Under the pieces are notes generated by a model that saw only the letters and a program-made list of their open reading frames with translations, was not told the DNA's origin and did not search any database. Both the position numbers and the translations under genes were made by a program. Below are positions 7,599 to 61,999 of a stretch of DNA of 64,000 bases, in pieces; position 1 is the first letter of the stretch; each line of letters begins with the position of its first letter. The stretch comes from Shigella phage ESh17: the sequence record ON528727; one strand, 5' to 3'.

Positions 7599-7628
7599 GT
7601 TTACTTCCTCGGTTAGTTATGGTATTAT
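7599..7628 (+). promoter_or_regulatory. T4 early-type promoter
   Basis: gtttac 7599-7604, 18-nt spacer, tattat 7623-7628. Confidence 0.55.
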
Positions 7629-7655
7629 AACACCATAGCTACTGAGGATAATAAA

Positions 7656-8159
7656 ATGAAAATTTATCGTGTTGAATCATCTTTTAGTATTCTTAATAAT
7701 GAAGATGCTATAACAATACGTCGAAATCTTTGTGTTCAAATAACGCCATACAGGAGTATAATAGATTCATGGAGAGAAGAATGGTTATTACACGTAGGTT
7801 ATGACAGACCTAATTTTATGCATCATAGTAATGATAATAAAAGAATTCCTCTTCCGCACGAAGACAAACTATTAGTTAAAAATGCTAATATAGCAATTAA
7901 TACTAATTTTGAGAAAGAAGAATATGTAGGCGTAGATCACTATATTCCAGGATGGTTTATAGCTCTTTATCATTTTGCTTTCGCTAGCGAATATGATATG
8001 ATGAGATGGTTCACACGAGAAGAGCGCGAAGAATTATCTTCTAAAGGATTTTATCTCGCTGTATACGAAGTTCCTGAAGATGAAGTTATCATTGGTGGGC
8101 ACCAAGTAATGTTCCGCAAATCGCATGCTGAACTCGTAGATTTTATTGAAATGAGATAA
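7656..8159 (+). CDS. hypothetical protein (167 aa)
   Basis: ORF track; preceded by early promoter. Confidence 0.5.
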   Translation: MKIYRVESSFSILNNEDAITIRRNLCVQITPYRSIIDSWREEWLLHVGYDRPNFMHHSNDNKRIPLPHEDKLLVKNANIAINTNFEKEEYVGVDHYIPGWFIALYHFAFASEYDMMRWFTREEREELSSKGFYLAVYEVPEDEVIIGGHQVMFRKSHAELVDFIEMR

Positions 8160-10850: not shown

Positions 10851-11111
10851 ATGAAATATATTAATCGTTCTATCGCAGCATTAGTATTAGCAGTGTCTTT
10901 AGCAGGATGTACTGATGCTGATAATGCAACCAAAGTTTTGTCTTCAAGTGGTTTTACTAATATTGAAATCACTGGATATAACTGGTTCGGTTGCTCTGAA
11001 AATGATTTCCAACATACTGGATTTCGTGCTATTGGACCTACCGGGCAGAAAGTAGAAGGAACCGTATGTTCTGGTCTATTCTTCAAGGATTCGACTATCC
11101 GTTTTAAATAA
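10851..11111 (+). CDS. putative lipoprotein (86 aa)
   Basis: Signal peptide with lipobox LAGC. Confidence 0.5.
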   Translation: MKYINRSIAALVLAVSLAGCTDADNATKVLSSSGFTNIEITGYNWFGCSENDFQHTGFRAIGPTGQKVEGTVCSGLFFKDSTIRFK

Positions 11112-11128
11112 AAGGCCTTCGGGCCTTT
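11112..11128 (+). terminator. hairpin terminator (weak T-tract)
   Basis: ggccttcgggcc + ttt. Confidence 0.45.
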
Positions 11129-11180
11129 AGCTTTATGATTACCGGAGTATAATATTCCCGAAACCAAACGAGGATAAGTG

Positions 11181-12998
11181 ATGATTAAGAATGAAATTAA
11201 AATTCTGAGCGATATTGAACATATCAAAAAGCGTAGCGGCATGTACATTGGTTCTTCTGCTAATGAAATGCATGAGCGCTTTCTGTTTGGTAAATGGGAA
11301 AGTGTTCAGTATGTACCTGGTCTTGTTAAGCTTATTGATGAAATTATCGATAACTCAGTAGATGAAGGTATTCGTACTAAGTTTAAATTCGCGAATAAAA
11401 TTAATGTTACTATCAAAAACAATCAAGTAACTGTTGAAGATAACGGTCGTGGTATTCCACAAGCGATGGTTAAAACACCTACTGGTGAAGAAATTCCTGG
11501 TCCTGTTGCCGCCTGGACTATTCCAAAAGCAGGTGGTAATTTCGGTGATGATAAAGAACGCGTCACTGGCGGTATGAACGGTGTTGGTTCTAGTTTAACT
11601 AACATTTTTTCTGTGATGTTTGTCGGTGAAACTGGCGACGGTCAAAATAATATTGTAGTTCGTTGTTCAAATGGCATGGAAAATAAATCATGGGAAACTA
11701 TTCCTGGAAAATGGAAAGGAACTCGTGTTACTTTCATTCCTGATTTTATGTCATTTGAAACTAATGAGCTATCTCAAGTTTATCTTGACATTACATTGGA
11801 TCGTCTCCAGACACTTGCAGTAGTTTATCCTGATATTCAATTTACATTTAATGGTAAAAAGGTTCAAGGTAATTTTAAGAAATATGCACGCCAATATGAT
11901 GAGCATGCTATCGTTCAAGAACAAGAAAATTGTTCTATTGCGGTTGGTCGTTCACCGGATGGTTTTCGTCAATTAACATACGTCAATAACATTCATACTA
12001 AGAATGGTGGCCATCATATTGACTGTGTTATGGATGATATTTGTGAAGACCTTATTCCACAAATCAAACGCAAGTTCAAAATTGATGTAACTAAAGCACG
12101 TGTTAAAGAATGTTTGACTATCGTCATGTTTGTTCGTGATATGAAAAACATGCGATTTGATTCTCAGACTAAAGAGCGTTTGACTTCTCCATTTGGTGAA
12201 ATTCGTAGTCATATTCAGCTTGATGCTAAAAAGATTTCACGCGCTATTTTAAACAATGAAGCAATTTTAATGCCAATTATTGAAGCTGCTTTGGCTCGTA
12301 AATTGGCGGCAGAAAAAGCAGCAGAAACTAAAGCAGCTAAAAAGGCCTCTAAAGCTAAGGTTCATAAACATATTAAAGCGAATCTTTGTGGTAAAGATGC
12401 TGATACTACTCTTTTCTTGACTGAAGGTGATTCGGCTATTGGATATCTCATTGATGTTCGTGATAAAGAACTTCATGGTGGTTATCCATTACGTGGTAAA
12501 GTTCTCAACAGTTGGGGTATGTCTTATGCAGATATGCTTAAAAACAAAGAACTATTTGATATTTGCGCAATCACTGGATTAGTTCTCGGTGAAAAAGCTG
12601 AAAACTTGAATTATCATAATATCGCTATTATGACTGATGCTGACCATGATGGTCTAGGAAGCATTTATCCTTCTCTGCTCGGATTTTTTAGTAATTGGCC
12701 AGAATTGTTTGAGCAAGGAAGAATTCGCTTTGTCAAAACTCCTGTAATCATCGCTCAGGTCGGTAAAAAACAAGAATGGTTTTATACAGTCGCTGAATAT
12801 GAGAGTGCTAAAGATGCTCTACCTAAACATAGCATCCGTTATATTAAGGGACTTGGCTCTTTGGAAAAATCTGAATATCGTGAGATGATTCAAAACCCAG
12901 TATATGATGTTGTTAAACTTCCTGAGAACTGGAAAGAGCTTTTTGAAATGCTCATGGGAGATAATGCTGATCTTCGTAAAGAATGGATGAGCCAGTAG
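11181..12998 (+). CDS. 39: DNA topoisomerase II large subunit, uninterrupted gp39+gp60 fusion
   Basis: 605 aa from ATG 11181; GHKL ATPase N-terminus and gp60-type C-terminus ...AIMTDADHDGLGSIYPSLLG...REWMSQ in one ORF. Confidence 0.95.
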   Translation: MIKNEIKILSDIEHIKKRSGMYIGSSANEMHERFLFGKWESVQYVPGLVKLIDEIIDNSVDEGIRTKFKFANKINVTIKNNQVTVEDNGRGIPQAMVKTPTGEEIPGPVAAWTIPKAGGNFGDDKERVTGGMNGVGSSLTNIFSVMFVGETGDGQNNIVVRCSNGMENKSWETIPGKWKGTRVTFIPDFMSFETNELSQVYLDITLDRLQTLAVVYPDIQFTFNGKKVQGNFKKYARQYDEHAIVQEQENCSIAVGRSPDGFRQLTYVNNIHTKNGGHHIDCVMDDICEDLIPQIKRKFKIDVTKARVKECLTIVMFVRDMKNMRFDSQTKERLTSPFGEIRSHIQLDAKKISRAILNNEAILMPIIEAALARKLAAEKAAETKAAKKASKAKVHKHIKANLCGKDADTTLFLTEGDSAIGYLIDVRDKELHGGYPLRGKVLNSWGMSYADMLKNKELFDICAITGLVLGEKAENLNYHNIAIMTDADHDGLGSIYPSLLGFFSNWPELFEQGRIRFVKTPVIIAQVGKKQEWFYTVAEYESAKDALPKHSIRYIKGLGSLEKSEYREMIQNPVYDVVKLPENWKELFEMLMGDNADLRKEWMSQ

Positions 12999-13027
12999 TT
13001 TACTTTACCACAAGGATGTGGTATAAT
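12998..13027 (+). promoter_or_regulatory. T4 early-type promoter
   Basis: gtttac 12998-13003, tataat 13022-13027. Confidence 0.55.
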
Positions 13028-13052
13028 TAATTGGGCAAATGAGGATATTGAA

Positions 13053-16618: not shown

Positions 16619-16623
16619 AATAA

Positions 16624-16645
16624 GGGGCTTCGGCCCTTTTGTTTT
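16624..16645 (+). terminator. intrinsic terminator
   Basis: gggcttcggccc + ttttgtttt. Confidence 0.6.
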
Positions 16646-16656
16646 AAGGAAAAATT

Positions 16657-17494: not shown

Positions 17495-17524
17495 GTTTAC
17501 ATACCACAAGGACTGTGGTACTAT
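17495..17524 (+). promoter_or_regulatory. T4 early-type promoter (repeated cassette)
   Basis: aaaaaaattttcacaaaacGGTTTAC...tggTACTATacaactatc. Confidence 0.6.
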
Positions 17525-17551
17525 ACAACTATCAGCTACGGAGGAGTAAAA

Positions 17552-18003: not shown

Positions 18004-18033
18004 GTTTACAAGACTGTTCCTCTGCGGTACTAT
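18004..18033 (+). promoter_or_regulatory. T4 early-type promoter (repeated cassette)
   Basis: gtttac 18004-18009, tactat 18028-18033, leader caactatcaactacggagg. Confidence 0.6.
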
Positions 18034-18061
18034 ACAACTATCAACTACGGAGGAACACAAA

Positions 18062-18175
18062 ATGAAAAAGATTGTTAAAGCTATATGGAATGTAGTTATA
18101 ATACTAGTAGTTTTGAGTATATTCCCAATCGTTTTAATGATTGATGTATTAAACGTTTACTTTGGATTTATGTGA
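18062..18175 (+). CDS. small transmembrane peptide (37 aa)
   Basis: MKKIVKAIWNVVIILVVLSIFPIVLMIDVL...; track ORF 17927 would span the promoter. Confidence 0.4.
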   Translation: MKKIVKAIWNVVIILVVLSIFPIVLMIDVLNVYFGFM

Positions 18176-33200: not shown

Positions 33201-34122
33201 TCGTTATAATGCGTAAACGTGCTTTACTATCCCCGTCAAACAATCTCCACAATTTCTCATTATCATCAAACATCAAGAAACCGTCAATCGATGTACGGCC
33301 TTCAATGGAATGAGTTCCAACTTCTTGCACTGAAGTCGTTTCATCGTATGTAGTAACAATTGTATGATAAAGTGGATTCAGTTTATCTAAATCAACGAAA
33401 TTAATAATATCGCCATGATTAGCAAATCTCGGAAGTTTAATATTTATCGGTGCAGCAGAAGTAAATCTACGTACGATAAAATCGTTGGATTGCGCTTGAT
33501 AAGTATTCGCTGGTGTTACAACTACAGCTTCTCTGCTATAATCAGCTACATACATTTGCCACAGACGATTACTAAAAATTAAAACTAACTGTGACTTTGG
33601 ATGAGTCATTAGTACTGAACGTACTTGCTCGCCTCTGAAGTTTACAATACTTTGCACTGGAGCTACAATTAAAACTTGGTTAACTCCAGGTTTTCCTCCA
33701 ATGTCTTGGAGAACGATAGTATCACCGTCAATTGGAGTAGATGGTAAAGTAAATGTAATATCATTACCAGCTGCAGTGTTAACCGAAATAGCTTCACCGG
33801 ATTTTAATTGATATGAACCAGATGAGACTGTAATCCAGTTAGCATCGGTACGTAATGCTCTCCAGCGTCCACTATTAAAAGCTCCTGCCGGTTTTGGAAT
33901 ATCATTTATAGCAGCCCAAAAGCGGTTATCATAAATGATTACAAAATCTTTTAAATATCCACGAGTTGGATCGTATTGTTGAACTGTGTTTTCTTGAATT
34001 AGGTAATCAACGTTAACACCGTCAGTTCCTACGGCACGATCAGCTAAAGCTACGTTGATTATTTTATCGCCACCTGCGTCCAGACCATCTTCTGCTCTGA
34101 ACTTTCTTTTAATCTCGGCCAT
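30253..34122 (-). CDS. 34: gp34 long tail fibre proximal subunit
   Basis: 1289 aa equals T4 gp34 length; internal ATETRRG-type repeats. Confidence 0.95.
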   Translation of the reverse strand: MAEIKRKFRAEDGLDAGGDKIINVALADRAVGTDGVNVDYLIQENTVQQYDPTRGYLKDFVIIYDNRFWAAINDIPKPAGAFNSGRWRALRTDANWITVSSGSYQLKSGEAISVNTAAGNDITFTLPSTPIDGDTIVLQDIGGKPGVNQVLIVAPVQSIVNFRGEQVRSVLMTHPKSQLVLIFSNRLWQMYVADYSREAVVVTPANTYQAQSNDFIVRRFTSAAPINIKLPRFANHGDIINFVDLDKLNPLYHTIVTTYDETTSVQEVGTHSIEGRTSIDGFLMFDDNEKLWRLFDGDSKARLRIITTNSNIRPNEEVMVFGANNGTTQTIELQLPTNISVGDTVKISMNYMRKGQTVKIKAAGEDKIASSVQLLQFPKRSEYPPETKWVTVQELVFNGETNYVPVLQLAYIEDSDGKYWVVQQNVPTVERVDSLNDSTRARLGVIALATQAQANADLENSPQKELAITPETLANRTATETRRGIARIATTAQVNQNTTFSFADDIIITPKKLNERTATETRRGVAEIATQQETNAGTDDTTIITPKKLQARQGSESLSGIVTFVSTAGATPASSRELNGTNVYNKNTNNLVVSPKALDQYKATPTQQGAVILAVESEVIAGQSQEGWANAVVTPETLHKKTSTDGRIGLIEIATQSEVNAGTDYTRAVTPKTLNDRRATESLSGIAEIATQVEFDAGVDDTRISTPLKIKTRFNSTDRTSVVALSGLVESGTLWDHYTLNILEANETQRGTLRVATQVEAAAGTLDNVLITPKKLLGTKSTESQEGVIKVATQSETVTGTSANTAVSPKNLKWIVQSEPTWAATTAIRGFVKTSSGSITFVGNDTVGSTQSLELYEKNSYAVSPYELNRVLANYLPLKAKAADANLLDGLDSSQFIRRDIAQTVNGSLTLTQQTNLSAPLVSSSTATFGGSVSANSTLTISNTGTATRLIFEKGPQTGTNPVQTMTIRVWGNQFGGGSDTTRSTVFEVGDETSNHFYSQRNKAGNITFSINGTVMPINVNASGSLNAGGVATFGSSVTANGEFISKSANAFRAINGDYGFFIRNDAANTYFMLTASGDQTGGFNGLRPLAINNQSGQVTIGESLIIAKGATINSGGLTVNSRIRSQGTKTADLYTRAPTSDTVGFWSIDINDSATYNQFPGYFKMVEKTNEVTGLPYLERGEEVKSPGTLTQFGNTLDSLYQDWITYPTTPEARTTRWTRTWQKTKNSWSSFVQVFDGGNPPQPSDIGALPSDNATMGNLTIRDFLRIGNVRIIPDPMNKSVKFEWIE

Positions 34123-44681: not shown

Positions 44682-46269
<1,588 letters not shown>

Positions 46270-46272
46270 GCT

Positions 46273-46330
46273 GTTTACAAGTCCCTCGTGTTGTGTTATA
46301 GTAGTCTTACTGACATAACATGAGGACTTT
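46273..46330 (+). promoter_or_regulatory. early-type promoter plus SD-sequestering hairpin (copy 1)
   Basis: gtttac 46273-46278, tatagt 46297-46302; gtccctcgtgtt...aacatgaggac. Confidence 0.5.
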
Positions 46331-46837
46331 ATGATGGATTTGCAGCTTATTACTACTGAAATGGTCGTTGAAGCATACGGTGATACTACAGATGGGATTT
46401 CTGTATTCAAAGGAAATCGTCGAGTTGGATATATCACCGATCTTAAGAAAGATTTAGCTAAGCAAGTCAAGCGGAAAACGACCATTAAAGAATATCGAAA
46501 TCGTCGTCTTGAGCAAGCTCGTGATATGCTTCCTGATGCGGTTGAAGAGATGAAAGTCTTTTTAGAAAATCAACTCGCTAAGTATGATTGTGATGTGTTC
46601 ATTAATCAGACTCAACCTAATGTTCATATTAACAACTGTAAATGCTATATCATCGTTAATCCTTTAACGGGAAAACATCGTCTTGGAATTAGTAATCCAA
46701 ATCGTAGCGCATCGGATATGGCAGAAGATGTTGAGGCATGCTTTAAAATTTCTAAATCTCCTGCTGAACATCATATTTTAATTAACGGTCTTTCTCAAGA
46801 CGATATTATAGAGGTTATTAAAACTTTATGCAATTAA
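46331..46837 (+). CDS. alc: Alc-like protein (host transcription shutoff)
   Basis: 168 aa; size and position between rnlA and pseT as in T4. Confidence 0.65.
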   Translation: MMDLQLITTEMVVEAYGDTTDGISVFKGNRRVGYITDLKKDLAKQVKRKTTIKEYRNRRLEQARDMLPDAVEEMKVFLENQLAKYDCDVFINQTQPNVHINNCKCYIIVNPLTGKHRLGISNPNRSASDMAEDVEACFKISKSPAEHHILINGLSQDDIIEVIKTLCN

Positions 46838-52598: not shown

Positions 52599-52628
52599 GT
52601 TTACAGTATAGTTCCTTTGTGATAGTAT
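52599..52628 (+). promoter_or_regulatory. T4 early-type promoter
   Basis: gtttac 52599-52604, tagtat 52623-52628. Confidence 0.55.
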
Positions 52629-52655
52629 TATCTTACACAAACAAAGGAGAATAAA

Positions 52656-53024
52656 ATGAAAATCAATCTTAACTCATACATCAAAGGTAAAGATCACGAC
52701 GGCTATAAAGCTATCGAAACTAAAGAACTTCAGTGGCACTTATACAAAGAACAATTTGAATTTGTAAGTTGCATGACTCCTGAAGGTCCTTCTGATGATT
52801 TCTCTTGGAAAATAATGTTAACTAACTTTTTTACTGGAGATACATACGAATTGAAAACTTTGATTATTGGTAAAATTCGTTGTGAGACTTATGAAGATAA
52901 AGAAACTGGTTACTCTGAAGATGTTACGTGGTATCAAAATGGTCGTATTACCGCTGACCTCTTGATTGAAAAAATGAAAGCCAAAGGTGAATTAAATTTA
53001 GATAATTGGATTAAAGTTGCATAA
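52656..53024 (+). CDS. hypothetical protein (122 aa)
   Basis: ORF track. Confidence 0.5.
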   Translation: MKINLNSYIKGKDHDGYKAIETKELQWHLYKEQFEFVSCMTPEGPSDDFSWKIMLTNFFTGDTYELKTLIIGKIRCETYEDKETGYSEDVTWYQNGRITADLLIEKMKAKGELNLDNWIKVA

Positions 53025-57228: not shown

Positions 57229-57413
57229 AAGCTTACTTAGAAACAATTGTCATTGCTCAAAAAGAAGGTGGAGATGTTTCTACTTCTGTATCACAAGTCA
57301 TTCTCGAATTTGTAGATGCATATGCTTATAATAAATTCACAGAAACATTTGATGCCTATGAAAAAGGTCCAAAGTTTGAAATATATCGTACTCTCTTACC
57401 ACTAGATTACTAA
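57225..57413 (+). CDS. hypothetical protein (62 aa)
   Basis: ORF track; ATGA coupling to ligase. Confidence 0.45.
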   Translation: MKAYLETIVIAQKEGGDVSTSVSQVILEFVDAYAYNKFTETFDAYEKGPKFEIYRTLLPLDY

Positions 57414-57435
57414 AGGCCTTCGGGCCTTTAATTTT
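57414..57435 (+). terminator. hairpin terminator
   Basis: ggccttcgggcc + tttaatttt. Confidence 0.55.
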
Positions 57436-57465
57436 ATAAATAGAATAAACACTAGAGAGGATATG

Positions 57466-59559
57466 ATGGAACTCATTACAGAATTATTTGACGAAGATAC
57501 TACTCTTCCGATTACAAACTTAAATCCAAAGAAGAAAATACCGCAAATTTTTTCAGTTCATGTTGATGACGCAATTGAACAACCAGGCTTTCGTTTATGT
57601 ACCTATACATCTGGAGGTGATACTAATCGCGATTTAAAGATGGGCGATAAAATGATGCATATTGTTCCTTTTACATTAACTGCTAAAGGTTCAATTGCTA
57701 AATTAAAAGGTCTCGGTCCAAGCCCAATTAATTACATCAATTCAGTTTTTACTGTTGCAATGCAAACGATGCGTCAGTATAAAATTGATGCCTGCATGCT
57801 CCGTATTCTTAAGTCTAAAACTGCTGGTCAAGCTCGTCAAATTCAACTTATTGCTGATAGACTTATCCGCAGTCGTTCAGGTGGCAGATACGTCCTTCTT
57901 AAGGAACTCTGGGATTACGATAAAAAGTATGCATATATTCTTATACATCGCAAAAATGTATCACTAGAAGACATTCCAGGAGTTCCGGAAATTAGTACCG
58001 AGCTCTTTACTAAAGTTGAATCGAAGGTCGGTGATGTTTATATCAATAAAGATACTGGAGCTCAAGTAACTAAAAATGAGGCAATTGCAGCATCTATTGC
58101 GCAAGAAAATGATAAACGTTCTGACCAAGCTGTAATCGTTAAAGTTAAAATTTCACGTAGAGCAATTGCGCAAAGTCAATCATTGGAATCTTCTAGATTT
58201 GAAAGTGAATTATTCCAGAAGTATGAATCTACCGCAGCTAATTTCAATAAACCTGCTACCGCTCCTTTAATTCCCGAAGCAGAAGAAATGAAGCTTGGAA
58301 TTAATTCGTTAGCTTCTAAAACTAAGGCAGCAAAAATTATTGCCGAAGGAACTGCGAATGAACTTCACTATGACTATAAATTCTTTTCAAAAAGTGAGGT
58401 TGATGAAGTTTCAGAAAAAATTAAAGATGTAATTTTTAACGCAATCAAAAATGAACCAACTACTTCAATAAAATGTTTAGAGAAATACGCAGCAGCTGTT
58501 AATAAATTCTTTGAAGAATATAAAGATAATTGGCTTGATAAACATAATAAAACTCGTAAAGGGCAACCAGATGAAGTCTGGGGAGAAATAACTAAAAATG
58601 CATGGAATGCAGCAAAAACTAAATTCCTCAAACGAATGATTTATAGCTTTTCTGGAATTGGTGCTGGTCCAATGATTGATATTACTATTGCCCGTGATGG
58701 TTCTAAATATACTCCATCACAAAAGCGAGGTATTAGAGAATATTGTGGTTCAGGATATACAGACATTAATAATCTTCTTTTAGGTCGTTACAATCCAGAA
58801 CGATATGATGTAATGAGTGAAAAAGAAATTGAATCTGCTATAAATAATTTAGATTCAGCTTTTGAAAATGGTGACCGCATACCGGAAGGCATTACAGTTT
58901 ATCGTGCTCAAAGTATGACTGCTCCTATATACGAAGCACTAGTTAAAAATAAAGTGTTCTATTTCAGAAATTTTGTATCTACTTCTTTAACTCCTATCAT
59001 TTTTGGACGTTTTGGAATTACACATGCTGGTATTGGTCTTTTAGAACCAGAAGCTCGCAATGAATTAACAGTTGATAAAAATGAAGAAGGAATAACTATT
59101 AATCCAAACGAAATAAGAGCGTATAAAGAAAATCCTGAATACGTTAAAGTTCAAATAGGATGGGCAATTGATGGAGCTCATAAAGTTAATGTTGTATATC
59201 CAGGAAGTCTCGGAATAGCAACAGAAGCCGAAGTTATTCTACCGCGCGGATTGATGGTCAAAGTTAATAAAATAACTGATGCTTCTAATAATGACGGAAC
59301 CACGTCTAATAATACAAAACTCATTCAAGCTGAAGTTATGACCACCGAAGAACTCACCGAATCGGTAATTTATGACGGTGACCGTTTAATGGAAACCGGC
59401 GAAGTAGTTGCAATGACAGGTGATATTGAAATAGAAGACAGAGTTGACTTTGCATCATTTGTTTCATCAAATGTTAAACAGAAAGTAGAATCATCTCTTG
59501 GAATTATTGCGTCTTGCATAGATATTACAAACATGCCTTACAAGTTCGTTCAAGGATAA
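57466..59559 (+). CDS. alt: Alt ADP-ribosyltransferase (packaged, injected)
   Basis: About 697 aa from MELITELFDEDTT; matches remembered T4 Alt; R (YRAQ), STS, E-x-E (EAEVILP). Confidence 0.9.
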   Translation: MELITELFDEDTTLPITNLNPKKKIPQIFSVHVDDAIEQPGFRLCTYTSGGDTNRDLKMGDKMMHIVPFTLTAKGSIAKLKGLGPSPINYINSVFTVAMQTMRQYKIDACMLRILKSKTAGQARQIQLIADRLIRSRSGGRYVLLKELWDYDKKYAYILIHRKNVSLEDIPGVPEISTELFTKVESKVGDVYINKDTGAQVTKNEAIAASIAQENDKRSDQAVIVKVKISRRAIAQSQSLESSRFESELFQKYESTAANFNKPATAPLIPEAEEMKLGINSLASKTKAAKIIAEGTANELHYDYKFFSKSEVDEVSEKIKDVIFNAIKNEPTTSIKCLEKYAAAVNKFFEEYKDNWLDKHNKTRKGQPDEVWGEITKNAWNAAKTKFLKRMIYSFSGIGAGPMIDITIARDGSKYTPSQKRGIREYCGSGYTDINNLLLGRYNPERYDVMSEKEIESAINNLDSAFENGDRIPEGITVYRAQSMTAPIYEALVKNKVFYFRNFVSTSLTPIIFGRFGITHAGIGLLEPEARNELTVDKNEEGITINPNEIRAYKENPEYVKVQIGWAIDGAHKVNVVYPGSLGIATEAEVILPRGLMVKVNKITDASNNDGTTSNNTKLIQAEVMTTEELTESVIYDGDRLMETGEVVAMTGDIEIEDRVDFASFVSSNVKQKVESSLGIIASCIDITNMPYKFVQG

Positions 59560-59562
59560 ATC

Positions 59563-61620
59563 ATGGAACTTATTACAGAATTATTTGACGGCGCTTCGGC
59601 GCCGGTTGTTAACTTAAATCCTAAGCATAAAATACCACAAATTTTTGCTATTCAAGCCGGTGAAGAAAGCGTGCTTCCTGGATTTAGATTTTGTACATAC
59701 ACCTCTGGCGGTGATACGAATAAAAACGTTAAGCCAGGCGATAAAATGATGCATATCGTAATGATAGGTGTCAACGAGAAATTATCGCTGGTTAAGCTTA
59801 GAAACTTGGGTGGAAATCCAATTGGCGTCATTAATGCTGTTTTTGATACTGCTCTTCAAACAATGAAACAGTATAAAATTGACGCATGCCTATTCCGCGT
59901 ACTAAAAAGTAAAACAAATGGCGCTGCTCGTCAAATGCAAGTTATTGCTGACCGTTTAGTACGTACTAAAGGAGCAGGTCGATATGTTCTTTTAAAGGAA
60001 ATCTGGGACTATGATAAAAAGTATGCATATATTATGGTTTACCGTAAAAATGCCAATTTAGAAGACATTCCAGGTGTACCTCCTATTTCAACTGAGTTAT
60101 TCACAAAAGTTGAATCGAAGGTCGGTGATGTTTATGTAGATGTTAAAACAGGTAATGCTGTTCCTAAAGCTGTCGCTGTTGCTGCTTCTATTGCTTTAGA
60201 AAATGATAAGCGCACGGATCAAGCTGTTATTCAAAAAACTAAAATTAGTCGTCGATTAGCAGCACAAGCTCAATATTCTACTGTCGATGCTTCACTTCAG
60301 GGTGATAGCTTCGCTGCTAAGAAATATCAAGAGTTTGAATCTAAAGTTCCGGTATATAAAGCAGAAGGTCCGATGAACTCTGGCGTTATCCAGATTGGTT
60401 CAAACTTCAGCAAAGGAGCTATCGGTGGTATGAGGAGTGCTTCTCGTTTTAAATCTAGCGATTATGAACTAGAAAACTTCCGAAATCATATTGCATTGGC
60501 CCATGCACGTTTACGTGATCCATCTATCAAGTTGCAGAGCGATATAACATATCAAGGTTCTCAAGAATATTTAAAGAATAAAGAATTCTTTGATTATAAA
60601 ACTGATAAAATTTTAAGCGATCTTGCTGACATTAATATTTCTAATAGCTTTGATGTTATTAAGAAAATTATTAATGATTTAGTTAAAGGTTCTAAAGCTA
60701 CGCCAGATGAAAAGACAGCTATTATTCAATTTGTCATGAATGGCATTTATAAATTGATTAATGAATCTGCTGCCCAGGCATATGAATATGCAAGCACCGA
60801 AGTAACTCCAAAAGGATTAACTCAGGCTGAGTCTGATGTAATTGAAGATTATTGTGCAGATTCATATGTTGAAATGAACTCGTTCCTCTTGGGTAAACCA
60901 GATTCTACCCGTGAAGAATACATGGAACGAGCTATTAAACACATCGAGACAATGGATTCTGCATTCGCTAAAGGTTCAGTTCTTCCTCCAGGAACTACGC
61001 TTTATCGTGGACAAGAAGTTACTTTTAAAACTTTACGTCATAATATTGAAAACAAAATGTTCTATTTCAAGAACTTTGTATCCACGTCGCTTAAACCAAA
61101 CATCTTCGGTGAGCATGGTAAAAACTATATGGCTCTAGATGATTCCGGTGCAGTATTTTCTGGTGAAGGAGAAGGTTCTGTTGATGCTGAAGATTTAATG
61201 CATATGGGTAGTCACTCTGCTTATGCGAATGAAGACGCTGAAACTAGCGTAGGTATGGTAATTAAAGGGGCTGAGCGAATCAAAGTTATCGTTCCAGGTC
61301 ATTTATCAGGATTTCCATCAGAAGCTGAAGTTATTTTACCGCGTGGAATTTTGCTGAAGATTAATAAAGTGAGCACGTACATGATGAAAGAAACTGCTTA
61401 TAATAAGTATCTAATCGAAGGCACAATCGTTCCTCCTTCTGAACAATTAGAAGAATCGGTATATGATGGCGATCATCTAATGGAAACTGGTGAAGTTCGT
61501 CCAATGGCTGGGTTTAATCAATTCCTTGTAGAAGAATCAAAAGAAGAGGAAAACGAAGTTTCTCAAATCTTGGCTTCTTTGGTTAACATCAACGGAATGT
61601 CTAAAAAGTTCAAGATGTAG
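59563..61620 (+). CDS. Alt-like ADP-ribosyltransferase paralog
   Basis: 685 aa; N-terminus MELITELFDG and ART motifs YRGQ, STS, EAEVILP shared with Alt; central region divergent. Confidence 0.8.
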   Translation: MELITELFDGASAPVVNLNPKHKIPQIFAIQAGEESVLPGFRFCTYTSGGDTNKNVKPGDKMMHIVMIGVNEKLSLVKLRNLGGNPIGVINAVFDTALQTMKQYKIDACLFRVLKSKTNGAARQMQVIADRLVRTKGAGRYVLLKEIWDYDKKYAYIMVYRKNANLEDIPGVPPISTELFTKVESKVGDVYVDVKTGNAVPKAVAVAASIALENDKRTDQAVIQKTKISRRLAAQAQYSTVDASLQGDSFAAKKYQEFESKVPVYKAEGPMNSGVIQIGSNFSKGAIGGMRSASRFKSSDYELENFRNHIALAHARLRDPSIKLQSDITYQGSQEYLKNKEFFDYKTDKILSDLADINISNSFDVIKKIINDLVKGSKATPDEKTAIIQFVMNGIYKLINESAAQAYEYASTEVTPKGLTQAESDVIEDYCADSYVEMNSFLLGKPDSTREEYMERAIKHIETMDSAFAKGSVLPPGTTLYRGQEVTFKTLRHNIENKMFYFKNFVSTSLKPNIFGEHGKNYMALDDSGAVFSGEGEGSVDAEDLMHMGSHSAYANEDAETSVGMVIKGAERIKVIVPGHLSGFPSEAEVILPRGILLKINKVSTYMMKETAYNKYLIEGTIVPPSEQLEESVYDGDHLMETGEVRPMAGFNQFLVEESKEEENEVSQILASLVNINGMSKKFKM

Positions 61621-61680
61621 TTTACAAGTCCCTCGTGTTGTGTTACAATAGTTTTACTGACATAACATGAGGAACACAAA
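61620..61680 (+). promoter_or_regulatory. early-type promoter plus SD-sequestering hairpin (copy 2)
   Basis: Near-identical to 46273..46330. Confidence 0.5.
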
Positions 61681-61971
61681 ATGAAATCTTCTTTACGCTT
61701 TTTAGGTCAAGAACTTGTAGTTGAAGGCGTTATTCCTGCTGATAACGCTTTTAATGAAGCAGTTTATGATGAATTTATCAAAATTTTTGGAACAGATAAA
61801 AAGTTCGGAATTTTTCCTTCTGAAAATTTTTCAAAGCCAGAGCAGACTGAAAGCATTTTCCAAGGTGTAGTAACAGGTAAATTTGAGTCAGAAGCTCCGG
61901 TAAAAATTGAAGTTTATATTGAAGACAGTTTAGTTGCTTCAGTTGCTGCTTTTATTTCATTCCGTAAATAA
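61681..61971 (+). CDS. hypothetical protein (96 aa)
   Basis: ORF track. Confidence 0.5.
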   Translation: MKSSLRFLGQELVVEGVIPADNAFNEAVYDEFIKIFGTDKKFGIFPSENFSKPEQTESIFQGVVTGKFESEAPVKIEVYIEDSLVASVAAFISFRK

Positions 61972-61977
61972 AAATAT

Positions 61978-61995
61978 GGGGACCGAAAGGTCCCC
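61978..61995 (+). terminator. bidirectional hairpin between convergent genes
   Basis: ggggaccgaaaggtcccc between plus-strand ORF and minus-strand gene 54. Confidence 0.55.
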
Positions 61996-61999
61996 ATTG

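Follow-up and report, generated by a model that had tools for sequence, protein, structure and literature searches.

The analysed window, a 64,000-nt stretch of DNA, is a segment of a Tequatrovirus (T4-like) genome, and its + strand corresponds to the direction of T4 early transcription. The alc region that was tested showed 100% identity to Shigella phage ESh18 and 94-98% identity to hundreds of T4-like phages. A 54-nt cassette, which extends from the -35 element of a promoter to a Shine-Dalgarno (SD) sequence, is present upstream of two genes of the window, and the features surrounding its two copies are as follows.

45145-46269, + strand: rnlA (RNA ligase 1 / gp63), upstream of copy A, with its stop codon at 46267-46269
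46273-46326, + strand: copy A of the 54-nt cassette, between the rnlA stop and the alc start
46331-46837, + strand: alc (inhibitor of host transcription), with ATG codons at 46331 and 46334
57463-61620, + strand: alt (57463-59559) and a full-length alt paralogue (59563-61620), upstream of copy B
61620-61673, + strand: copy B of the cassette, whose -35 element shares its first base with the stop codon (61618-61620) of the alt paralogue upstream
61681-61971, + strand: homologue of T4 alt.-3 (96 aa, function unknown, phrog_1739), with its ATG at 61681
61976-61997, bidirectional: terminator-like hairpin after alt.-3, detected by the terminator scan, which marks the end of the unit

The repeat search (repeat family D5) revealed that copies A and B, each 54 nt in length and 15,347 nt apart, are identical at 51 of 54 positions (94%). 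The similarity starts exactly at the -35 sequence GTTTACA and ends directly after the SD sequence GAGGA, and the flanks are unrelated. All three differences between the copies are located in the -10/discriminator part (TATAGTAGTC vs TACAATAGTT). The 5' part of the cassette (26 nt) occurs exactly twice in the window, against an expectation of 0.00 from 100 shuffles. A search with a 61-nt cassette query returned 997 places in 499 Tequatrovirus records, which corresponds to two per genome, and the two copies of T4 itself differ by a single base. The original prediction of a duplicated early promoter and leader upstream of alc and ORF 61681 is thus borne out, both copies being where it had placed them, and the control element that it regarded as common to alc and alt.-3 is indeed carried by both genes. 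The start codon of alc is annotated differently among records, as ESh18 uses the first ATG (46331) and the T4 reference record the second (46334); the latter is favoured because its spacing from the SD is 7 nt, compared with 4 nt for the first.

The promoter elements of the two copies were assigned as follows.

46273-46279, + strand: -35 element of copy A, GTTTACA (T4 early type; TTTACA at 46274-46279)
46297-46302, + strand: -10 hexamer of copy A, TATAGT, preceded by TG (extended -10), at the stem top and in the loop of the hairpin described below
46309, + strand: putative transcription start of copy A in the loop of the hairpin, placed by promoter geometry 7 nt downstream of the -10 hexamer (+/-2 nt)
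61644-61649, + strand: -10 hexamer of copy B, TACAAT, preceded by TG; the putative start is near 61656

A T4-type early promoter was defined as GTTTAC(A/T), a spacer of 17 +/- 1 nt, a TGn extended -10 and a -10 hexamer TAnnnT, and the -35 element, spacer, TGn and -10 hexamer of an early sigma-70 promoter of this type are all present in both copies. Copy A (TTTACA-17-TATAGT) and copy B (TTTACA-17-TACAAT) each match 10 of the 12 consensus positions and have the TG in addition. The GTTTAC-type framework is common to 19 early-promoter-like sites on the + strand of the window, 17 of them besides the two copies. With regard to an UP element, which would be A/T-rich and located at about -40 to -60, both copies abut coding sequence; positions -37 to -56 of copy A (tcccagaaggatactaagct) are moderately A/T-rich, and an A/T-rich run lies further upstream. 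The late consensus TATAAATA was not found within either cassette.

The RNA of the cassette is predicted to fold into a hairpin, the arms of which are listed below.

46279-46297, + strand: 5' arm of copy A, formed by the promoter spacer (AAGUCC-C-UCGUGUUGUGUU) and holding the anti-SD CCCUC
46312-46329, + strand: 3' arm of copy A, formed by the leader and including the SD GAGGA (46322-46326)
61628-61645, + strand: 5' arm of copy B, formed by the promoter spacer
61658-61675, + strand: 3' arm of copy B, including the SD GAGGA (61669-61673)

In the predicted fold of copy A, a helix of about 18 bp contains one bulged C (46285) and three G.U pairs. The minimum free energy was -24.4 kcal/mol for copy A (z = -4.7), a stability reached by none of 200 shuffled sequences, and -20.8 kcal/mol for copy B (z = -4.1), a stability reached by one of 200. 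The helix persisted in the predicted folds of read-through contexts of 140-240 nt. The pairing between the two arms that had been proposed, gtccctcgtgtt and aacatgaggac, is therefore real, although the helix is longer (about 18 bp) than the 11 bp originally given, and the SD is located inside the 3' arm in both copies, as had been noticed. The hairpin does not follow the promoter, as had also been proposed, but straddles it: the 17-nt spacer between the -35 and -10 elements is the 5' arm, the -10 hexamer and the start are in the loop, and the leader with the SD is the 3' arm. The search of the window against Rfam 15 gave no matches at the gathering thresholds, and around copy A only chance-level hairpin (miRNA-type) matches with E values of at least 0.85 were returned.

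Because the 5' arm is upstream of the -10 hexamer, RNA that is initiated at the cassette promoter would have only the 3' arm and no hairpin. RNA beginning at the putative starts gave weak folds of -4.8 (copy A) and -4.5 kcal/mol (copy B), with z near 0. The predicted cost of opening the region from the SD to the AUG was 3.6-3.9 kcal/mol in RNA from the putative +1, also when this was moved by +/-2 nt, and 12.9-15.5 kcal/mol in read-through RNA entering from 60-160 nt upstream. These predictions leave aside ribosomes terminating on the upstream gene, 6-12 nt before the 5' arm is reached, and such ribosomes could partly open the helix.

The pairing between each spacer and its own leader was evaluated against shuffled spacers and against the spacers of the other promoters. 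The spacer/leader duplexes reached -21.7 kcal/mol in copy A and -20.8 kcal/mol in copy B, and neither value was attained by any of 2,000 shuffled spacers. On each of the two leaders, the own spacer ranked best in comparison with the spacers of all other promoters. In addition, the + strand folded better than the - strand in both cases (-24.4 vs -15.4 kcal/mol for copy A; -20.8 vs -17.4 kcal/mol for copy B).

The same layout was found upstream of alc, with different stems, in seven genera, namely Gelderlandvirus, Karamvirus, Jiaodavirus, Bragavirus, Dhakavirus (represented by two phages), Winklervirus and Tequatrovirus. In the other genera, the gap between rnlA and alc is about 60 nt and contains GTTTACA, a spacer of 16-17 nt and a -10 hexamer. 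The stems are formed by TCTCCGTTTAGTT / AACTAAACGGAGA in Gelderlandvirus, TCCTCATCAG / CTGATGAGGA in Jiaodavirus and AACCTCTCATTTT / GAAAATGAGAGGTT in Bragavirus. In all seven genera, the SD is included in the 3' arm, and 1-7 nt separate the end of this arm from the AUG. At 14 of the 17 spacer positions, at least two types of standard pair, and up to four, were observed across the seven genera; since the 3' arms are out of register in the MAFFT alignment of the cassettes, the pairs were counted from the own duplex of each sequence, so that this count is fitted to the structure and is controlled by the cross-genus energy matrix and the spacer shuffles. In the matrix, cognate duplexes reached -15 to -23.5 kcal/mol, whereas most cross-genus pairs were between -6 and -13 kcal/mol. 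Within Tequatrovirus, most variants are located in the loop, and the few stem changes convert G.U to A-U or C-G to U.G, or are located in the bulge. The 5-6 close loci per gene that were obtained from IMG/VR are informative for such within-genus variants and not for covariation. Taken together, these comparisons indicate that the helix is real and is under selection, and the existence of a selected hairpin that sequesters the SD, as originally predicted, is supported by the covariation across genera.

The design was absent at alc in 6 of the 13 lineages sampled (NHEP11, VR7, Providencia phage PSTCR6, Acinetobacter phage Ac42, Aeromonas phage phiAS4 and Cronobacter phage LPCS28, the last three being more distant phages) and is therefore dispensable. 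Two of these loci have peculiarities of their own. In Escherichia phage VR7, an extra ORF of 77 aa, preceded by a terminator-like hairpin, is inserted between rnlA and alc; it is annotated as similar to the N-terminal part of Alc and may represent a partial alc duplication. In PSTCR6, the spacer pairs with the sequence right after the -10 hexamer (ATGGCTCTTTA / TAAAGAGTCAT) and the SD is outside the helix, and thus a straddling hairpin is present without SD masking.

Considering these features, we propose that the cassette, which combines a strong T4-type early sigma-70 promoter, a leader of about 22 nt and an SD with a spacer complementary to the leader and the SD, would gate translation according to where the transcript begins. 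As the -10 hexamer and the start are in the loop, two kinds of RNA are expected, one with a single arm and one with both. RNA from the cassette's own promoter would contain the 3' arm only, leaving the ribosome-binding site open for translation. Read-through RNA, arriving from rnlA at copy A and from the late alt genes at copy B, would contain both arms, and these would form the helix of about 18 bp that buries the SD, so that the downstream gene would be translated poorly or not at all. The synthesis of Alc and Alt.-3 would thereby be tied to the immediate-early window and insulated from the upstream genes, which are expressed for longer or later. On balance, the cassette probably restricts the translation of alc and alt.-3 to transcripts of their own early promoters; in this model, we infer where transcription starts, how translation is affected and what the biological purpose would be. 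The shared post-transcriptional control of the two genes that had been suggested at the outset is thus retained with respect to the hairpin, the SD and the common element, but not with respect to an action on the mRNA of the promoter itself.

The model depends on transcripts that read through the cassettes. The scan detected no terminator-like site in the interval from rnlA to alc or in that from the alt paralogue to alt.-3, and one further feature is relevant to copy B.

57435-57442, + strand: late-promoter consensus TATAAATA located 21 nt upstream of alt, from which late read-through RNA reaching copy B probably originates

Read-through is expected because no terminator-like site intervenes and a late promoter precedes alt, and late alt transcripts from that promoter should cross copy B and continue to the terminator at 61976-61997. 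According to the published T4 expression classes, alc, alt.-3, regB, denV, motB.2 and nrdC.8 are early in both RNA and protein, rnlA is early in RNA and late in protein, and alt is a late gene (PMC9697503). These classes fit the reading in which translation depends on transcript origin. The regB gene, in particular, is reported to require tight control, and its early promoter to be off after 2-3 min (PMC3014915).

The proposal bears on a wider question. T4 genes are packed in long overlapping transcripts, so that most early genes are also present on later read-through RNAs, and how the production of some early proteins stops is not fully understood. Partial answers are the shut-off of early promoters and cleavage by RegB (PMC3014915, PMC2988021). 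An anti-SD encoded in the spacer would link translation to promoter activity purely in cis, with no factor needed. Alc and RegB would be plausible beneficiaries, because the former shuts off host transcription and the latter is an mRNA nuclease that needs tight limits. Being compact (54 nt), portable and conserved by covariation, the cassette should also be easy to test and reusable as a synthetic insulator.

Several other functions of the hairpin have to be weighed against origin-dependent translation. It is unlikely, though it deserves serious consideration, that the hairpin acts as a terminator, attenuator or 3'-end stabiliser on the rnlA or alt transcript and that the overlap with the SD is a by-product of an intergenic space of about 60 nt. 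The hairpin starts 6-12 nt past the upstream stop codon, which suits such a role; in GenBank X04567.1, the corresponding inverted repeats of denV, regB and ipII are annotated as 'pot. transcription terminator'; and the stem-loop of an RB49 promoter/stem-loop module (PeSL; see below) lowered lacZ expression from a transcriptional fusion to the same extent as rrnB T1 (PMC2839356). An intrinsic terminator would combine a G+C-rich stem with a U-run, and the tails that were found are CUUUAUGAUG (copy A) and AACACAAAAUG (copy B); a U-run is missing 3' of the stem in copy B and in the other genera, and the scan flagged no site. The reading was set aside on these two grounds and kept as a rival in view of the old annotation and the PeSL reporter data. 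Moreover, the SD is always in the 3' arm, in the seven genera at alc and at four regB loci, and this overlap is not forced, because other promoters of the same genomes hold a hairpin wholly inside the spacer. Terminator function would in any case be compatible with SD gating, and one need not exclude the other. Translational coupling, in which the helix would be melted at its base by a ribosome completing rnlA or the alt paralogue, so that the SD is freed and the downstream gene is translated only in step with the upstream one, appears rather improbable. It would draw on the upstream stops, which in every genus examined precede the 5' arm by 6-12 nt, on the stop codon that overlaps the -35 element of copy B, and on the first pairs of the stem, which are those between the anti-SD and the SD. 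In copy A, however, the stop codon (46267-46269) is 9 nt before the helix and at least 12 nt before CCCUC, which, judging by ribosome footprints, is at the limit of what a terminating ribosome can unwind. The classification of the rnlA protein as late and of Alc as early also argues against a coupled output.

A nearly perfect helix of about 18 bp is close to the size of an RNase III substrate, and a repeat centred on the -10/+1 region could be a DNA operator or cruciform at the promoter; yet a site for RNase III or another nuclease that separates the cistrons, or a DNA-level element of this kind, is very unlikely. Nothing in the analysis speaks for cleavage. The three G.U pairs and the better fold of the + strand led us to reject a DNA-level palindrome, and the strand asymmetry and the wobble-preserving variants likewise point to RNA; a site for a sequence-specific protein is unlikely because the sequence of the stem is not conserved between genera. 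The original prediction had a different emphasis, namely that the promoter's own mRNA begins with the hairpin, which throttles the translation of alc and alt.-3. The hairpin and the sequestration of the SD on which it was built are real, but the 5' arm coincides with the promoter spacer and would not be transcribed from this promoter, and the RNA from the putative start folds weakly and leaves the SD cheap to open. Since promoter geometry puts the transcript starts inside the hairpin loop, downstream of the 5' arm, this version fails by the standard that was set for it, the position of transcript starts with respect to the hairpin, and we regard it as hardly tenable. Translation gated by transcript origin is the reading that we carry forward.

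Pairing between spacer and own leader was bimodal among the early promoters of the window, being strong in 5 of 18 and at background level in the other 13. The strong five are located at 46273, 61620, 7599, 18004 and, more weakly, 52599, each with p <= 0.0015 against shuffled spacers. Besides copies A and B, they are the following.

7599-7658, + strand: cassette before motB.2, with a duplex of -17.4 kcal/mol formed by spacer UCCUCGGUUAG and leader CUACUGAGGA
18004-18064, + strand: cassette preceding an ORF of 37 aa (-16.4 kcal/mol), comparable to the promoters of ndd.4 and nrdC.8 in T4
52599-52658, + strand: weaker cassette before a 30.8 homologue (-11.3 kcal/mol)

In the census of T4 promoters, which covered 1-77 kb and 112-169 kb of NC_000866, about 7 of 35 promoters reached -17 kcal/mol or better, and these precede alc, alt.-3, regB, denV, motB.2, nrdC.8 and ndd.4. 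The regB cassette likewise covaries across genera, as Mosigvirus, Moonvirus and, in part, Jiaodavirus have the design with stems of other sequence, and the 3' arm holds the SD at all four loci examined (T4 and three other genera). As a tentative generalization, a sizeable subset of T4-like early promoters, about one in five in T4, may consist of 'origin-gated' cassettes, in which the spacer doubles as an anti-SD, only the promoter's own transcript is translated, delayed-early, middle and late read-through RNAs are all silent, the insulation is conserved and the modules are exchangeable. If this is true, gating across the class would help to explain the sharp shut-off of some early proteins.

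Several related arrangements were observed among the other promoters. The cassette at 18004-18064 and the T4 promoters at 166807 (ndd.4), 53943 (nrdC.8) and 27080 (imm.1) share the spacer AGAC(T/C)GTTC(C/T)TC(T/C)G(T/C)GG. Besides the pairing within each cassette, the ndd.4 spacer pairs with the nrdC.8 leader and vice versa, and the imm.1 promoter has the same spacer together with a different, non-pairing leader. A second type of early cassette, found at 12998-13034 and 17495-17531, has a small hairpin wholly inside the spacer (e.g. CCACAAGGATGTGG) with an AAGGA-like loop, and this type also precedes alt.-3 in other genera and, in NHEP11, alc. At 33640-33700 (+ strand, antisense inside gene 34), an early-promoter match (GTTTACA-17-TACAAT) has no SD or ORF downstream, and the sequence following it is complementary to its own spacer (CTGGAGC / AACTCCAGG); it could give rise to an antisense or primer transcript or be a chance match.

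The distribution of promoter types bears on the origin of the duplication. The alt.-3 homologues of Karamvirus, Gaprivervirus, Mosigvirus and Marfavirus are preceded by another early promoter, which has a small hairpin within the spacer and no SD pairing. Because the design is old at alc and absent before alt.-3 of these four genera, copy B was most likely derived from the alc cassette and would have replaced an older alt.-3 promoter in the Tequatrovirus lineage. Conversely, the alc leader of NHEP11 is still complementary to a T4-type spacer (-20.6 kcal/mol) and its own spacer is of the internal-hairpin type, which suggests that exchange can also go in the opposite direction and fits the idea of PeSLs as recombination linkers. 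The notion that the two copies could serve as recombination sites is plausible to the extent that promoter cassettes of this kind bear signs of past exchange, seen in the promoter types of alt.-3 and in the alc leader of NHEP11. Genes 31 and 30 would be lost in a deletion between the two copies, so that only conversion or duplication could be expected to survive.

The region upstream of copy B is itself variable. The tandem paralogues of alt (RNA polymerase ADP-ribosyltransferase) have an identity of about 71-72% across the DNA blocks that the repeat search detected (families D2, D3 and D9). In T4, the second alt copy is reduced to the N-terminal remnants alt.-1 and alt.-2, joined to the last seven or so codons. 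Copy B was considered as a recombination breakpoint, as the homology between the window and T4 starts near 61601, and was rejected because the T4 deletion lies inside the alt paralogue; T4 keeps about the last seven codons of that gene, and the deletion is therefore internal to it and ends about 20 nt upstream of the cassette. Hairpins with a UUCG tetraloop of the GGCCUUCGGGCC type recur at 11111-11141, 16622-16652 and 57412-57442 (repeat family D4), and the last of these is followed directly by the late consensus before alt, forming a terminator-plus-late-promoter module.

Masking of an SD on long transcripts is known from other systems. In the RNA phage MS2, the coat and replicase genes are translationally coupled through an SD-masking helix, the other strand of which is near the end of the upstream cistron. 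Unlike in MS2, the masking strand of the cassette is intergenic and not coding, and a promoter is located inside the structure. In T4 e, soc, 49 and I-TevI, the SD is hidden on long transcripts and a late promoter inside the hairpin gives rise to an open RNA (Uzan & Miller 2010, PMC3014915). In these genes, the SD and/or the AUG is in a helix on RNA from an upstream promoter, as is predicted for both cassette copies, and the proximal promoter is within the DNA of the 5' strand or the loop, as it would be in the cassette with the putative start. In contrast to their late promoters (TATAAATA), the cassette has an early promoter of the sigma-70 type, the spacer of which provides the 5' arm. The predicted outcome is also reversed, since the hairpins of e, soc, 49 and I-TevI hold back late proteins early, whereas the cassette would allow expression early only and be silent on later read-through RNA. 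Accordingly, the cassette would work like this group but is not a member of it, because its promoter is early and lacks TATAAATA.

Two descriptions of early promoters come close to the cassette. GenBank X04567.1 (1986; T4 58.3-65.5 kb) records imperfect inverted repeats C/C' (denV) and D/D' (ORF 61.9 = regB) as potential terminators. As in the cassette, the order at denV and regB is repeat arm, -10 region and a repeat arm with the ribosome-binding site, and our T4 census recovers both; the record is without alc, alt.-3, a cross-genus comparison or a remark that RNA initiated at the promoter misses the 5' arm. PeSLs (promoter-early stem-loops) are modules repeated in the genomes of T4-like phages, and a role as linkers in modular recombination has been proposed for them; in phi1 and RB49, the stem-loop often overlaps the promoter (Arbiol et al. 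2010, PMC2839356; Comeau et al. 2014, PMC4122927). Five subclasses were described, with the stem-loop upstream of the -35, over the -35, between the -35 and -10, over the -10 or just before the start; the stem-loop was interpreted as a terminator or attenuator, and its reach to the SD was not described, nor translation discussed (PMC2839356, PMC4122927). Among the reviews and PeSL papers covered by the search, an SD-gating reading of early promoters, or of those at alc and alt.-3, was not found.

Like a PeSL, the cassette is an intergenic module of upstream stop, early promoter, stem-loop, SD and start codon, and the spacer-internal hairpins of the second cassette type resemble the RB49 class in which the stem-loop is between the -35 and -10. 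Unlike in the PeSL subclasses, the helix of the cassette reaches from the spacer as far as the SD, with the -10 and +1 enclosed in between. PeSLs are typified by many repeated copies that cluster in hyperplastic regions beside indels or replacements. Of the cassette, there are only two near-identical copies per genome, 15 kb apart and flanking essential genes, with copy B bordering the variable region of the alt paralogue. Further PeSL traits are terminator or attenuator activity and recombination between copies through mini-circle formation; for the cassette, comparative evidence points to exchange. These comparisons refine the PeSL concept, in that certain stem-loops associated with promoters may serve to gate translation instead of terminating transcription.
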